14,384 bases of DNA from Aestuariibaculum sp. (lineage in GTDB: Bacteria > Bacteroidota > Bacteroidia > Flavobacteriales > Flavobacteriaceae): the NCBI GenBank assembly GCA_047975295.1, contig JBKEDH010000167.1:1-14384 (forward strand). Direction: 5' to 3'. Of the stretch, positions 4,045-9,136 are shown piece by piece. The translations under genes and the position numbers were made by a program. The notes beneath the pieces are model-generated. The model was not told the origin of the DNA and searched no databases. It saw nothing but the letters and a program-made list of their open reading frames with translations. Position 1 is the first letter of the stretch; the number at the start of each line of letters is the position of its first letter.

Positions 4045-4557
4045 ATGCAAATATTAAGTAGTAAAACTGAAGATATAGATCTCATTCACAAACTTTATCG
4101 GTATGCAGCCAATTTTCAAAAAACAAAAGGAACTGTTATTTGGACAGATTTTGACAGAAGTTTAATTCAACAGGAAATATACAAAAAAAGGCAATGGAAA
4201 ATTGTAATTGACAATAAAATTGCCTCTATCTGGACAATTACGCATAGCGATCCCAAAATTTGGGGCAACAAAAATAGCGCCCCCGCCATTTACATACACC
4301 GAATTGCCACAAACCCCGAATTTAGGGGACAAAATTTGGTGGTTGAAATAGTTAGATGGGCAAGAAAATACGCTACCAAAAATGAAAAAAAGTTTATACG
4401 AATGGATACGGTCGGAGAAAATACGGGGCTTATTGAATACTATAAAAAATGTGGTTTCGATTTTTTGGGACTTTCAAAATTGGAAAATACTTATGGACTG
4501 CCTGCTCATTACAATAACGCTACTGTTTGCTTATTCCAAATGGCTGTTACCAATTAA
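4045..4557 (+). CDS. GNAT family N-acetyltransferase
   Basis: 170 aa. YIHRIATNPEFRGQNLVVEIVRWARKYA...FIRMDTVGENTGLIEYYKKCGFDF fits the GNAT core: beta4-alpha3 with an R/Q-x-x-G-x-G/A-like acetyl-CoA loop, and the C-terminal Y..GF motif. Confidence 0.6.
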   Translation: MQILSSKTEDIDLIHKLYRYAANFQKTKGTVIWTDFDRSLIQQEIYKKRQWKIVIDNKIASIWTITHSDPKIWGNKNSAPAIYIHRIATNPEFRGQNLVVEIVRWARKYATKNEKKFIRMDTVGENTGLIEYYKKCGFDFLGLSKLENTYGLPAHYNNATVCLFQMAVTN

Positions 4558-4587: not shown

Positions 4588-5598
4588 TCATTCCTGTTTC
4601 CGTTCATAATTCCTAACCGCCAACTTTTGTTTAAACAAAATACGGTTTCGCAATTTTCTGGGCTTTAAAACCTCCAGACTTTCACCAAATCCGAGAATTA
4701 AACGCTCCAATTCGTAATTAATCTGAACAAAAATATTAAAAACAACGCCATCCTCACGGGTTTCTATAATACGCTGCGACCAATGGAAAGGCTTTGTAAT
4801 AATATAAGGTGCATTTTTTTTATTGACCCAAAATTGTATGCATTCGGCTTTGATGTTCGATACGGTTACGCCTACTACATCGCTATAAAAATCGTCGCCG
4901 TTAACGGCCATATCTATATATTTAAGTTTTTTGTTCTGTTTTATACCAATTATCCGGTCTAAAGCAAGTGTTATAAACTTTTCATTTTGGTAGGCCAGTA
5001 AAAACCAACGGTTATTAAACTCTTTTAATAATTGCGGGTGTACTTCTATAATTTTAGGTACTCTTGCCGAAAACGACTGATAATTAACATTAATAACAGT
5101 TTTATCTTGAATGGTTTTATAAATAACATCAATAAAGTTTAGCCCCTTTAATTGTTCGTTCTTATCTAAATGAATAATGGCCCGTTTATTGACCTGAGAT
5201 GCGTAAACCGAATCTTCCAGACGCTGTAAAACACCGTCCATCTCCTTAAAAAGCGAAAAATCCTTAAATTGTTTTAATACTTGGATGGCATTGTTCATTA
5301 TTTCAACGTCTTTATCGGTTACGGGAATGTTTACAATACTGTAATTTTCGTCTTCATATTTATAATACTTCCTATTGTAAACCACAATAGGCGCATTATA
5401 ACCAAGTTTATCACTACGCATTATTTGTATATCCAATTGTACGGTACGCTTGCTAACATTAACATCTTTACCTTCGTATTCGTAAAGAGCGTCCGATACG
5501 GCTTCTATTAAATCGTCTAATGTCCAGCTTCTAAAATGGTTTTGAAGACATTTATCTATGGTTTTATATCTAATAAGAGCGTTTTTATTAACGGCCAT
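4588..5598 (-). CDS. WYL-domain transcriptional regulator (N-terminal wHTH, central WYL, C-terminal WCX-like; BrxR/CapW/PafBC-like architecture)
   Basis: 336 aa. N-terminal HTH-like SKRTVQLDIQIM. Central segment INVNYQSFSARVPKIIEVHPQLLKEFNNRWFLLAYQNEKFITLALDRI matches the WYL domain consensus (Y.S....R.V.P..L......WYL.AY........F.LDRI). The length is typical for this family. The gene is divergent from the ncRNA/SPFH/RtcB cluster. Confidence 0.8.
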   Translation of the reverse strand: MAVNKNALIRYKTIDKCLQNHFRSWTLDDLIEAVSDALYEYEGKDVNVSKRTVQLDIQIMRSDKLGYNAPIVVYNRKYYKYEDENYSIVNIPVTDKDVEIMNNAIQVLKQFKDFSLFKEMDGVLQRLEDSVYASQVNKRAIIHLDKNEQLKGLNFIDVIYKTIQDKTVINVNYQSFSARVPKIIEVHPQLLKEFNNRWFLLAYQNEKFITLALDRIIGIKQNKKLKYIDMAVNGDDFYSDVVGVTVSNIKAECIQFWVNKKNAPYIITKPFHWSQRIIETREDGVVFNIFVQINYELERLILGFGESLEVLKPRKLRNRILFKQKLAVRNYERKQE

Positions 5599-5660
5599 AA
5601 TGTTACTGTTCTAATTCATTTTTACTAAAATATAAGAAATTTTTCAAAAAAAAATTAAAC

Positions 5661-5679
5661 TACGCAAAAACATTGCGTA
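5661..5679. promoter_or_regulatory. Perfect palindrome TACGCAA-N5-TTGCGTA, candidate operator (possibly for the adjacent WYL regulator)
   Basis: 7-bp arms are exact reverse complements with a 5-nt spacer. It lies 63 bp upstream of the WYL gene start codon and overlaps the candidate -33 element of a plus-strand promoter. Confidence 0.4.
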
Positions 5680-5700
5680 ATTACATGAAAATATTTGCAA
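5671..5700 (+). promoter_or_regulatory. Candidate Bacteroidetes-type sigma-A promoter for the plus-strand tRNA-like/Y-RNA-like transcript
   Basis: TTG at 5673-5675 and TATTTG at 5692-5697 approximate TAnnTTTG. The spacing is shorter than the ~19-nt consensus. A transcription start near 5704 is implied. This is a weak motif-only call. Confidence 0.25.
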
Positions 5701-5742
5701 TGTAATAATAAAGAAGTCTTCTTTTTAGACTTTGTAAGTAGT

Positions 5743-5772
5743 GCTCCACCAGACACAGGAAGCTGGTGGAGC
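5743..5772 (+). other. Strong hairpin: 10-bp perfect stem GCTCCACCAG/CTGGTGGAGC with 10-nt loop ACACAGGAAG
   Basis: Direct reverse-complement reading. It sits between the candidate promoter and the first tRNA-like module. It follows a second palindrome, AAAGAAG-T-CTTCTTT, at 5710-5724. Confidence 0.5.
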
Positions 5773-5798
5773 TTAACAAACGCTCTTAAATATATAAT

Positions 5799-5870
5799 CT
5801 GGAAAAATAACAATGGCTGTTTGCTCGCTTTGGAAGCGGGAGGTTGCAGGTTCGAATCCTGCTTTCCAGA
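5799..5870 (+). tRNA. tRNA-like, canonical order, Pro(UGG)-like anticodon loop; atypical D-arm (possible pseudo-tRNA or part of a Y-RNA-like transcript)
   Basis: Cloverleaf reads CTGGAAA/TTTCCAG (perfect 7-bp acceptor, C1-G72 as in bacterial tRNA-Pro), AA, weak D-arm TAAC-AATGGCT-GTTT, G, anticodon stem CTCGC/GCGGG, loop TTTGGAA (U33, anticodon TGG, A37), variable AGGTT, T-arm GCAGG-TTCGAAT-CCTGC, discriminator A. No CCA is encoded. A8 and the 3-bp A/T D-stem are non-canonical. Confidence 0.45.
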
Positions 5871-6017
5871 CAAATGCCTGTAATAAAAAATATCAAGCAA
5901 GTCCTGTTGGGTGTTTCGGTATAGCACTATTGTATAAAACCTTGCCGATGGGTATTAGGTATTTATATGCAACTTGACTTGAAGGTTTCGAATTGTTTAT
6001 CCAAAAAACAATCACCA

Positions 6018-6087
6018 TCTATCTGTCACGGGTTCGAATCCCGTTCCCAACAAAAGTTGGGATAGCTCAGTTTGGTAGAGCAATAGA
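6018..6087 (+). ncRNA. Circularly permuted tRNA-like module (YrlA-type Y RNA-like tRNA mimic)
   Basis: Order is TCTAT (anticodon-stem 3' strand), CTGTC (variable), ACGGG-TTCGAAT-CCCGT (T-arm), TCCCAAC (acceptor 3' strand), AAAA loop, GTTGGGA (acceptor 5' strand), TA, GCTC-AGTTTGGTA-GAGC (D-arm), A, ATAGA (anticodon-stem 5' strand). All helices are perfect Watson-Crick. The element spacings equal those of a real tRNA but the order is permuted and the acceptor stem is loop-closed. Confidence 0.55.
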
Positions 6088-6096
6088 TTATCAATT

Positions 6097-6166
6097 GTAG
6101 GTTCGAATCCTACTCATGCAAAAACGTGATGGCGAAATTGGTAAACGCACTGTAACTGGGTTACAG
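6097..6166 (+). ncRNA. Second tRNA-like module in the same T-arm, stem-loop, D-arm order (degenerate)
   Basis: T-arm GTAGG-TTCGAAT-CCTAC (6097-6113), weak stem-loop region 6114-6131, class-II-like D-arm GCG-AAATTGGTAAA-CGC (6132-6148), A, then hairpin CTGTA(A)-ACTGGGT-TACAG (6150-6166). The acceptor strands do not pair, so this is not a canonical tRNA. Confidence 0.35.
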
Positions 6167-6172
6167 CTTGAA

Positions 6173-6195
6173 ATGGACTCAAAATCCATATTTTT
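6173..6195 (+). terminator. Rho-independent terminator-like hairpin ending the tRNA-like/Y-RNA-like region
   Basis: ATGGA-CTCAAAA-TCCAT stem-loop followed by ATTTTT. A second similar hairpin, ACAGTT-ATATTAA-AACTGT plus TTTTAT, lies at 6286-6310. Confidence 0.4.
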
Positions 6196-6512: not shown

Positions 6513-7613
6513 ATGAAACGAGTACGTATTAACACAGGAACAGTAGGATTAGTGTTTAAAAACGGTAACTACAAACGTACACTTACCAATGGCACTTATT
6601 GGGTAGGATTTGGCAAACACGTCGAAAAATATGCTTTAAACCACGAATTTTATGCCCCAAAACCATTGGAAATATTAATGGAAGATAGTACACTAACAAA
6701 TATGCTACACGTGGTCGATGTTTTAGATAATGAAATTGTACTAGTTTACGAAAACAATAATTTTAAACGAGTGTTGGGAGCAGGCCGATACACCTTTTGG
6801 AATACCTTAATCGAATATAAATTCGTTACGGTCAATTTAAGTAAAATCGATATTACCGAAAGCATCGATAAAACTGTATTAAGCCATGCCCAGTTATTAC
6901 CTTATGTGCGTGTTTTTGAAATTGCTGCTTACGAAAAAGCCATTTTAATGGTCGATGATACATATATAAAAACATTGAATCACGGTACATACCGGTTTTG
7001 GAAAAACCAGCAAACCATAAAAATAGCAAAAGCCGATTTACGCCAATTACAATTAGAAATAGCAGGGCAAGAGCTACTTACAAAAGACAAAGCAACCATT
7101 CGAATCAATTTTTATGCACAGTATAAAATAACCGATATAGAAACCGCCTTAATGCAAAATAAAGATTACGAAAAACAACTTTATATAACTTTGCAATTGG
7201 CATTAAGGGCCTATGTTGGCACCTATACACTCGATGAGTTGTTAGAACAAAAAGACAACGTAGCAAAAGTCGTTTTGAACAATGTAAAAGCACAAGCCAA
7301 CAAATTAGGCGTTAACGTATTGCACACAGGTATGCGTGACATAATTTTACCGGGCGACATGAAAGATATTATGAATCAAGTACTAATCGCACAGAAAAAA
7401 GCACAGGCCAATGTTATTACAAGGCGCGAAGAAACAGCTTCTACACGAAGTCTGTTAAACACCGCCAAATTAATGGAAGACAACACCATGTTGTTCAAAT
7501 TAAAGGAAATGGAATACGTCGAAAAAATAGCCGATAAAATTGGAAAAATTACAGTGGCTGGAAACGGAAACGTTATTGAGCAATTAAAAGATATTTTTTC
7601 GGTTAACAAATAA
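6513..7613 (+). CDS. SPFH/band-7 (slipin/stomatin-like) domain protein, no predicted TM helix
   Basis: 366 aa. The C-terminal half (QELLTKDKATIRINFYAQYKITDIETAL...GVNVLHTGMRDIILPGDMKDIMNQVLIAQKKAQANVITRREETA) matches the SPFH core and the following coiled coil. The N-terminal half carries three G-x-Y-x-FW repeats ~65 aa apart. There is no N-terminal hydrophobic anchor. Confidence 0.7.
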   Translation: MKRVRINTGTVGLVFKNGNYKRTLTNGTYWVGFGKHVEKYALNHEFYAPKPLEILMEDSTLTNMLHVVDVLDNEIVLVYENNNFKRVLGAGRYTFWNTLIEYKFVTVNLSKIDITESIDKTVLSHAQLLPYVRVFEIAAYEKAILMVDDTYIKTLNHGTYRFWKNQQTIKIAKADLRQLQLEIAGQELLTKDKATIRINFYAQYKITDIETALMQNKDYEKQLYITLQLALRAYVGTYTLDELLEQKDNVAKVVLNNVKAQANKLGVNVLHTGMRDIILPGDMKDIMNQVLIAQKKAQANVITRREETASTRSLLNTAKLMEDNTMLFKLKEMEYVEKIADKIGKITVAGNGNVIEQLKDIFSVNK

Positions 7614-7620
7614 TTTTTTT

Positions 7621-7710
7621 GGGCGTAACCCCAAAACGGTAACCAATAGTTGGTTTCATAACAAAGTCAAGGCTAACCGTTTCGGGGTCGCGCTTTCCGC
7701 GCTACACGGT
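7621..7710 (+). other. GC-rich structured intergenic element (long imperfect hairpin plus CGCG-CTTTC-CGCG hairpin) between the SPFH and rtcB genes
   Basis: CCCCAAAACGGT (7629-7640) pairs with ACCGTTTCGGGG (7676-7687), and flanking bases extend the helix. There is an inner AACCAA-TAG-TTGGTT hairpin and a CGCG-CTTTC-CGCG hairpin at 7689-7701. Local GC is far above the window average. Confidence 0.35.

Positions 7711-7744: not shown

Positions 7745-9136
<1,392 letters not shown>

Follow-up and report, generated by a model that had tools for sequence, protein, structure and literature searches.

Array-type tRNAs attached to RtcB repair systems are already known as a kind. The L-array of Anabaena is silent, becomes induced when translation is impaired, has 23 of its 26 tRNAs aminoacylated and is co-regulated with rtcB (PMC8421152), and in Anabaena the control exerted by the repressor TrcR extends to a slipin gene and to GNAT genes (PMC10272220). 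For phage tRNAs, anticodon-loop changes have been proposed as a means of escaping anticodon nucleases (van den Berg et al. 2023, PMC10264068), and the tRNA-like domain of the bacterial Y RNA YrlA is, according to Hughes et al., possibly a competitive inhibitor of an anticodon nuclease (PMC7790460). According to the account in 10.1101/312249, Burroughs and Aravind predicted a still unvalidated tRNA-like RNA beside Band-7 and RtcB genes, the 'Band-7-associated tRNA' or b7a-tRNA, for which Rfam has no family. Here we analyzed a tRNA-Pro(UGG)-like element at positions 5799-5870 of a 14,384-nt stretch of Aestuariibaculum sp. DNA (the window), whose genome is known only from a metagenome contig. Our analysis indicates that the element is probably an intact member of a conserved, supernumerary and non-canonical tRNA-Pro(UGG) family from arrays in the SPFH/RtcB RNA-repair islands, putatively WYL-regulated, that Flavobacteriaceae and related Bacteroidota carry, with the array here shrunk to one gene. 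The window gene would thereby be an added member of the known kind.

The element lies on the forward strand within a 914-nt intergenic region, with a WYL/WCX regulator gene on one side and an SPFH gene followed by an rtcB gene on the other. The predicted transcription regulator (4588-5598, reverse strand; Pfam WYL 7.7e-8, WCX 8.5e-10; PADLOC WYL 8e-20) is divergent from the RNA/SPFH/RtcB unit. An SPFH/Band-7 (stomatin-like) protein, whose nearest solved structures are stomatins, is encoded at 6513-7613 (forward strand; Pfam Band_7, 6.2e-26), with the tRNA-Pro gene 642 nt upstream of it. The next gene encodes an RtcB-family RNA ligase of a divergent subfamily (7763-9136, forward strand; Pfam RtcB, 6.4e-38) that is 71-85% identical to the RtcB proteins of the retrieved Bacteroidota genomes, mostly Flavobacteriaceae. 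Psychroserpens, Mesoflavibacter, Olleya and Winogradskyella are among the Flavobacteriaceae with RtcB relatives. PADLOC and NCBIfam yielded nothing beyond WYL and weak RtcB/HflK matches, and neither a Ro60/TROVE gene nor an integrase was found among the nine large open reading frames of the window.

A sequence-only reading of this DNA had drawn a full cloverleaf at 5799-5870, and the cloverleaf was borne out: the sequence matches the description, and the match to a tRNA covariance model is well beyond chance (Rfam RF00005, 51.9 bits against a gathering score of 29 bits, E = 6.7e-9, full length over model positions 1-71). The acceptor stem, CTGGAAA/TTTCCAG, is the 7-bp helix that had been described, with C1-G72, three G-C pairs and A73. 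The D-arm reads TAAC-AATGGCT-GTTT; the reported T-T mismatch is present as T10·T25, whereas the three pairs, given earlier as all A-T, are A11-T24, A12-T23 and C13-G22. The anticodon arm, CTCGC-TTTGGAA-GCGGG, has U33, the anticodon TGG at 5831-5833 and A37, and its stem, previously called perfect, is fully paired but includes a T·G wobble at 28·42. Next come AGGTT as the variable loop and GCAGG-TTCGAAT-CCTGC as the T-arm. The proposed likeness of this region to E. coli tRNA-Pro found no support, as BLAST of E. coli genomes gave only weak matches to tRNA-Arg genes. The 3' end reads ...CCAGA-CAAAT and CCA is not encoded. GC content is 49% for the element and about 36% for the window. Folded in isolation (z = -2.2), the RNA formed the acceptor stem and T-arm as drawn, whereas its anticodon helix was lengthened and its D hairpin weak.

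The canonical tertiary core of a tRNA comprises U8-A14-A21, G10-C25, G18 G19 and T54 Psi55 C56. The element has G18 G19 and TTCGAAT, but its core is otherwise non-canonical: position 8 is A rather than U, as had been noted, with U·U at 10·25 and T at position 21. The lack of a conserved U8, U10·U25 in place of G10-C25 and a position 21 that is not A count against a working tRNA. With default settings, ARAGORN called zero tRNAs anywhere in the window; with the threshold lowered to 95% (-ps), it called tRNA-Pro(tgg) at 5799-5870 and nothing else in the window. Its default settings recognized 16 of the 18 homologues from genome loci and missed the copies in loci L005 and L006. For annotation, this means that members of the tRNA-Pro family are missed or under-called by standard tRNA finders (ARAGORN in the window, L005 and L006).

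The window element aligned with the tRNA-Pro(tgg) genes of tRNA arrays at RtcB loci. From 80 genome loci fetched using RtcB as the anchor, and from metagenome stretches, we assembled 45 homologues (38 distinct), of which 19 came from 17 of the RtcB-anchored loci and 26 from the metagenome stretches. The metagenome members were retrieved by a pattern that fixes parts of the D-arm and A37. Across the 38 distinct sequences, C1-G72, A73, U33, the UGG anticodon and A37 were invariant; for A37, as for the D-arm columns, the independent evidence is the 19 genome-derived sequences only, all 19 of which carry A37, as does the window. The prolyl-tRNA synthetase (ProRS) identity set of G35, G36, A73 and C1-G72 was kept in 38/38 distinct members, including the window copy. 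All homologues have an A/U-rich acceptor stem that starts with C1-G72, and all have A9. The D-stem was (U/G)AAC...GUUU throughout, with three invariant pairs (A-U, A-U and C-G) and with 10·25 being U·U in most copies and otherwise G·U. The anticodon loop was UUUGGA(A/U), apart from CUUGGAC in one copy (L017). Position 8 varied freely among G, U, A and C.

This family is under visible constraint at the level of structure. Over the 38 distinct sequences, 95.5% of stem cells were paired (99-100% in the acceptor, anticodon and T stems), and compensatory double changes occurred at 13 of 21 stem pairs. None of 500 column shuffles matched the observed pairing and compensation values, and sliding the partner columns out of register reduced pairing to only 35-53%. 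The 19 genome-derived sequences alone gave the same covariation result. A protein-coding reading of the small open reading frames at 5695-5883 (forward strand) and 5655-5927 (reverse strand) was dropped, since substitutions follow RNA pairing. By these comparative measures, 5799-5870 is a real, conserved, non-canonical tRNA-Pro(UGG) gene of the array type, distinguished by A8, U10·U25, A37 and no encoded CCA.

We then compared the family with canonical tRNA-Pro. When the intergenic region was searched against plasmids, the one match was to ordinary tRNA-Pro(UGG) genes of Persicobacter (Bacteroidota) and not to a homologous locus. The Persicobacter tRNA begins CGGGGTG-TA-GCGT..., has the anticodon loop TTTGGGA with U8 and G37, and is 67% GC. 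It nearly matches the window copy from the anticodon loop onward, with the variable loop one base off and the T-arm identical; the acceptor stem and D-arm have diverged. Because the 3' half is so nearly that of a Persicobacter tRNA-Pro(UGG), the family is, on this alignment, derived from a true tRNA-Pro that kept its ProRS identity set and lost G37 and the conserved U8. G37 is the site of TrmD m1G37 methylation, which normally guards tRNA-Pro against +1 frameshifting. A37 removes m1G37 protection, and this, like the rejection of the element by ARAGORN at default settings, counts against a working tRNA. Position 37 is also altered in other array members. Array-type tRNA-Leu(UAG) has A37 and is 75 nt long, whereas the housekeeping copies in L051 and L056, two loci in which this housekeeping anticodon is duplicated within the locus, have G37 and are 83 nt long. 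The array tRNAs for Asp and Glu have U37 in place of A37, and those for Phe and Leu(UAA) have G37, against A37 in the housekeeping copies. A37 and the free variation at position 8 are not described in the literature that we consulted.

Many of the retrieved loci carry arrays on the RtcB strand, and the largest hold 20 tRNAs (L003), 18 (L049), 17 (L001), 16 (L007) and 14 (L014, 13 of them in the array). The fullest arrays, with up to 20 tRNAs, cover 17 amino acids, so that they look like decoding sets that are near-complete at about one tRNA per amino acid. Others have shrunk to Pro and Tyr (L002, L011, L017, L026) or to a single tRNA. Compared with 2-20 tRNAs in relatives (orthologous arrays of up to 20 include L003, L049 and L088), the window has one; it has lost the Tyr gene found after Pro in L002, L011 and L017, and selection in the window lineage may have relaxed recently. 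The divergent WYL/RtcB pair was present in about 60 of the 80 loci and SPFH in about 22, with the array placed either between the WYL/RtcB pair or downstream of RtcB. At L003, a related island, there are further genes for an Rnl2-like RNA ligase and an R2K ATP-grasp protein, together with genes for an RNase H-like protein and the RlaP nucleotidyltransferase. Judged by their gene content, the loci of the Pro-tRNA arrays are RNA-repair islands. The window tRNA-Pro gene appears to be supernumerary, because Pro copies have decayed in sister genomes (L019, L027, L033) and anticodons are duplicated in related loci.

The linkage was also recovered in the reverse direction. One metagenome scan by the Pro signature alone returned 22 stretches, in all of which the Pro copy lay in a tRNA array, except for one truncated stretch (L096). 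An SPFH homologue (50-67% identity) was encoded 1-3 kb downstream on the same strand in 13 of the 22. RtcB was present in four, two of which (L087 and L093) have no SPFH. Among the stretches with enough flanking DNA, only L100 had no SPFH, RtcB or associated structured RNA. A scan of viral contigs with the Pro-family pattern gave zero matches, and BLAST of the 20-tRNA array against phage and plasmid collections returned single generic tRNAs only. A recent phage or plasmid origin is unsupported, as these collections hold no homologous array.

Downstream of the tRNA-Pro gene, the intergenic region contains a structured noncoding RNA of roughly 300 nt (5891-6191), for which RNAalifold predicted 81 pairs, 39 of them with compensatory changes. 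Its Domain I (5891-5983, forward strand; model R2, with RNAalifold covariation) was found wherever a genome locus has SPFH with sequence upstream of it, as well as in 15 of the 22 metagenome stretches. Its place is invariably just upstream of SPFH, after the tRNAs. Two permuted tRNA-like modules follow on the same strand. Module 1 (6016-6090) is YrlA-like, consisting of a closing stem, T-arm, closed acceptor hairpin and D-arm, and its helices show many compensatory changes. Module 2 (6091-6191) consists of a T-arm, closed acceptor hairpin, D-arm, anticodon-like arm and terminal hairpin, again with covarying helices; a partial Rfam tRNA match falls at 6061-6115 (33.9 bits). The Rfam YrlA model matched 6005-6107 below threshold (47.1 bits against a gathering score of 69, E = 1e-8), in keeping with the earlier suggestion of a Y-RNA-like RNA in the same intergenic region as the tRNA-Pro gene. 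The further suggestion that 5799-5870 could be a domain of that transcript holds in part: co-transcription is probable, but the arms of the element follow the canonical order, and its evolution is that of an independent array tRNA. Three repeats containing TTCGAATCC (at 5844, 6026 and 6095) were considered as an integration site (att), and this was rejected, as the repeats are the T-arms of separately covarying modules.

Upstream of the tRNA-Pro gene we identified a promoter-like cassette. It begins with a palindrome, TACGCAA-N5-TTGCGTA (5661-5679), a candidate operator that occurs once in the window even at two mismatches (0.07 expected by chance) and recurs across loci. More than 20 loci have it 50-140 nt ahead of the RtcB match, and it is also found before tRNA/SPFH units and other genes. 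About 13 nt after it, at a fixed distance in nearly all aligned cassettes, is an A/T-rich box ending in TTTG (AATATTTGCA; 5690-5699, forward strand) that resembles the Bacteroidetes -7 promoter element. The box would act as a promoter, with transcription predicted to start near 5705; a generic scan for sigma-70 promoters and terminators gave counts no better than in shuffled sequence. A leader hairpin of 10 bp (GCTCCACCAG-loop-CTGGTGGAGC; 5743-5772, forward strand) follows about 40-45 nt past the TTTG box, is conserved with compensatory stem changes in many cassettes, and stands directly before the RtcB start codon in loci without SPFH. Across genomes, the palindrome, box and hairpin together precede RtcB (in loci without SPFH), tRNA/ncRNA/SPFH units and a few other genes. 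The promoter-like region and hairpin that the sequence-only reading had placed ahead of the tRNA-Pro gene are real, the cassette being conserved across many genomes. As the only cassette of the window, intact, precedes tRNA-Pro, co-transcription of tRNA-Pro with the 5743-5772 hairpin is supported.

The best-supported reading, and the most likely one in our analysis, is that the element is a stress-inducible spare tRNA-Pro, an emergency tRNA for use when normal tRNAs are damaged. We propose that the WYL protein would bind the candidate palindrome, which overlaps the promoter, and repress the unit, keeping it silent. Damage to tRNAs or to the translation apparatus would then lead to transcription of the leader hairpin, tRNA-Pro, the ncRNA and, judging from the single cassette, probably SPFH and RtcB. 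RNase P and RNase Z would release the tRNA, and CCA, which the gene does not encode, would be added. ProRS would charge it, consistent with the invariant G35, G36, A73 and C1-G72 and with a T-stem that is that of canonical Bacteroidota tRNA-Pro. The charged tRNA could decode CCN codons during periods in which RtcB is repairing housekeeping tRNA-Pro or the latter has been cleaved. The replacement of G37 by A37 might free the tRNA from dependence on TrmD methylation, make it harder for anticodon-loop nucleases to cleave, or do both.

An alternative is that the element is a tRNA-like cofactor, decoy or sentinel, that is, the 'Band-7-associated tRNA', acting as a scaffold for SPFH/RtcB, as a sink for anticodon nucleases, or as an RNA that is cleaved to signal to the WYL regulator (compare the tRNA halves proposed to activate RtcR). 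The tight SPFH/RtcB linkage in both search directions would fit such a role, as would the non-canonical core (N8, U10·U25) and A37, and it agrees with the Burroughs and Aravind prediction, as described in 10.1101/312249, and with the inhibitor role suggested for YrlA. The retention of Pro and Tyr in shrunken arrays, though the two are non-adjacent in full ones, likewise hints at a specific role. However, the family shows no variation in the ProRS identity set, U33 or the anticodon and has the T-stem of canonical tRNA-Pro, features that would be needless for a pure scaffold, if perhaps not for a decoy, and the array mates form a near-complete set with one tRNA per amino acid. Moreover, the RNA that tracks SPFH one-to-one is the permuted ncRNA at 5891-6191 and not tRNA-Pro, as several SPFH loci have no Pro gene. 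We therefore regard a cofactor or decoy as rather unlikely, if the most serious of the alternatives.

It is also conceivable that the element is a neutral relic of an array deleted down to one gene, intact by chance, unused and heading for decay. The reduction to one tRNA, the loss of Tyr and the default ARAGORN rejection are compatible with this, and loss does occur: the Pro copy of L019 has a 51-nt T-loop insertion and the anticodon loop TTTGAGT, that of L027 is mutated in the acceptor stem and anticodon, and that of L033 has a T-arm insertion. These decayed copies scored 50-77 bits on the family model R1, whereas intact members scored 81-102 bits and the window copy, at 90.2 bits, falls inside the intact range. 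The window copy retains all family-invariant positions, and its sole unique stem substitution, A42G, keeps pairing as U·G. The T-stem pair 52-62 is A-T in the related L011 copy and G-C in the window, both sides having changed in a compensatory manner, and the promoter cassette ahead of the gene is intact. The sequence-only reading had raised a decaying tRNA-Pro paralog as one option. The element is indeed a paralogue, its D-arm non-canonical and its acceptor stem A/U-rich, but not a decaying one, because its homologues share the odd features, their stems covary, it scores as intact and the decayed copies look different. Nor is the element absent from closely related genomes, in which it is widespread. 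A relic is thus improbable. That the element is an ordinary housekeeping tRNA-Pro(UGG) with a coincidental RtcB neighbourhood is very improbable even though it passes the Rfam tRNA threshold and has tRNA-Pro identity elements, since the Pro copy is absent or decayed at the RtcB locus in many sister genomes that still need CCA/CCG decoding, is present twice in each of L014, L087, L088, L099 and L101, and, when found independently, sits in arrays beside SPFH or RtcB in every case bar L100 and four contigs that are too short, and since U8, G37 and a GC-rich acceptor stem characterize the canonical tRNA-Pro(UGG) of Bacteroidota.

Returning to the spare, stress-inducible tRNA-Pro, we tentatively put forward a broader version of it, which we consider possible and would not yet lean on. 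Pro(UGG, A37) could be a minimal vestige of an 'emergency decoding set', encoded on the chromosome, in which position 37 is systematically rewired, so that the tRNAs work without their usual modifications and escape anticodon-loop toxins, and in which Pro and Tyr are indispensable. Connected with a WYL sensor and with an SPFH-RtcB module that has its own permuted-tRNA-like RNA, the set would constitute a dedicated tRNA-damage response of Bacteroidota. If true, a regulator, an operator, an odd tRNA, a structured RNA, SPFH and RtcB would make up a compact system for translation during tRNA cutting and repair, and the tRNA would be a natural tRNA-Pro that works without G37/m1G37 and without U8. 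It would also bear on the essentiality of TrmD and on the limits to which the tRNA core can drift.

Among described systems, the L-array (the trn operon of Anabaena sp. PCC 7120) resembles the arrays studied here in having extra tRNAs head to tail that duplicate housekeeping anticodons. It is likewise linked to rtcB, by co-regulation in Anabaena and by neighbourhood in some other cyanobacteria, its regulon has slipin/SPFH and GNAT genes, its repressor site overlaps the promoter, and such arrays have been reported in Bacteroidetes. Unlike in Anabaena, where the RHH protein TrcR and direct repeats are found, a WYL protein and the TACGCAA-N5-TTGCGTA palindrome are present here; array, structured ncRNA, SPFH and RtcB are physically joined; and the window has one tRNA rather than 20-43. 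Induction and charging have been demonstrated for the L-array of Anabaena only. The b7a-tRNA, compared by description only, is similar as a tRNA-looking RNA beside a Band-7/SPFH gene and RtcB, with YrlA-like RNAs sometimes in the same position. YrlA (RF02553), which combines a permuted tRNA-like domain with a stem that binds Ro60 and is encoded beside rsr, is a tRNA mimic in an RtcB operon, and a YrlA-like module lies 146 nt downstream of tRNA-Pro; in contrast to YrlA, 5799-5870 is in canonical order and has an anticodon arm and open acceptor ends, and the YrlA model gave no match on it. The array tRNAs share with the phage tRNAs (PMC10264068) that they are AT-rich, divergent extras, roughly one per amino acid, with anticodon-loop positions that differ from those of the host, here G37 to A in Pro and Leu(UAG), A37 to U in Asp and Glu, and A37 to G in Phe and Leu(UAA). 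Genes of the window type differ from the phage tRNAs in their chromosomal location, their synteny across genera and their ties to host repair genes.

Directly upstream of the SPFH gene lies a structured noncoding RNA (ncRNA) of about 300 nt (window 5891-6191), whose fold is marked by covariation (compensatory changes in 39 of 81 predicted pairs; RNAalifold). It consists of a domain I that is not tRNA-like and two circularly permuted tRNA-like modules, each running in the order T-arm, closed acceptor hairpin and D-arm. Searching with a model of domain I, we found the ncRNA at all SPFH-bearing genome loci with upstream sequence and also in metagenome stretches selected by the tRNA-Pro signature (15 of 22). 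The ncRNA is probably the true Band-7-associated RNA, which Burroughs and Aravind predicted beside Band-7 and RtcB.

Module 2 carries a hairpin resembling an anticodon arm (window 6149-6165; aligned positions in related loci L002-L053), the 7-nt loop of which varies from genome to genome: ACTGGGT in the window, CTCATAA in L049 and L033, and CTTTTAA in L053 and L036. The last hairpin of the ncRNA has the loop CTNAAAA.

A portable, putatively regulatory cassette was located at window 5661-5772, comprising the palindrome TACGCAA-N5-TTGCGTA, a box ending in TTTG some 13 nt further on, and then a covarying 10-bp hairpin with AGGAG within its loop. The same cassette is present at more than 20 loci (e.g. 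L049, at 4861 and 10382), and the genes behind it include RtcB, tRNA/SPFH units and others such as a nucleotidyltransferase-like ORF (L045, L055). Between SPFH and RtcB, at a site often occupied in relatives by a second putative operator cassette, the window has an imperfect inverted repeat rich in GC, GGGCGTAACCCCAAAACGGTAACC ... GGCTAACCGTTTCGGGGTCGCGC (7617-7700; z = -1.96 for folding). A pattern derived from this repeat had no match in any of 103 loci, and the repeat itself may be a small insertion.

Decayed relatives of the window tRNA-Pro were found at three loci: in L019 (2793-2916) the T-loop is interrupted by a 51-nt insertion, in L033 (8751-8846) the T-arm carries an insertion, and in L027 (1908-1980) there are point mutations in the acceptor and anticodon sequences. 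Array and housekeeping tRNAs differ systematically at position 37 (L001, L003, L007, L014, L049 and other array loci), where array tRNA-Asp and tRNA-Glu have a pyrimidine (U37), tRNA-Leu(UAG) has A37, and tRNA-Phe and tRNA-Leu(UAA) have G37. The "tRNA-Leu" genes of the arrays span 75 nt and have no long variable arm.

Related islands bear additional RNA-repair genes (e.g. L003, 2464-4842 and 6917-7663), encoding an RNase H-like protein (PF04308), an Rnl2-like RNA ligase, an R2K ATP-grasp protein and an RlaP nucleotidyltransferase. In 15 loci, among them L031, L032 and L047, a second RtcB gene, a distant paralogue with 28-30% identity, lies a few kb downstream.

In the window, a GNAT acetyltransferase gene (4045-4557) directly adjoins the WYL regulator gene. 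The TrcR regulon of Anabaena, which governs a tRNA array together with rtcB, likewise includes GNAT genes, and these are among the most strongly derepressed (PMC10272220).
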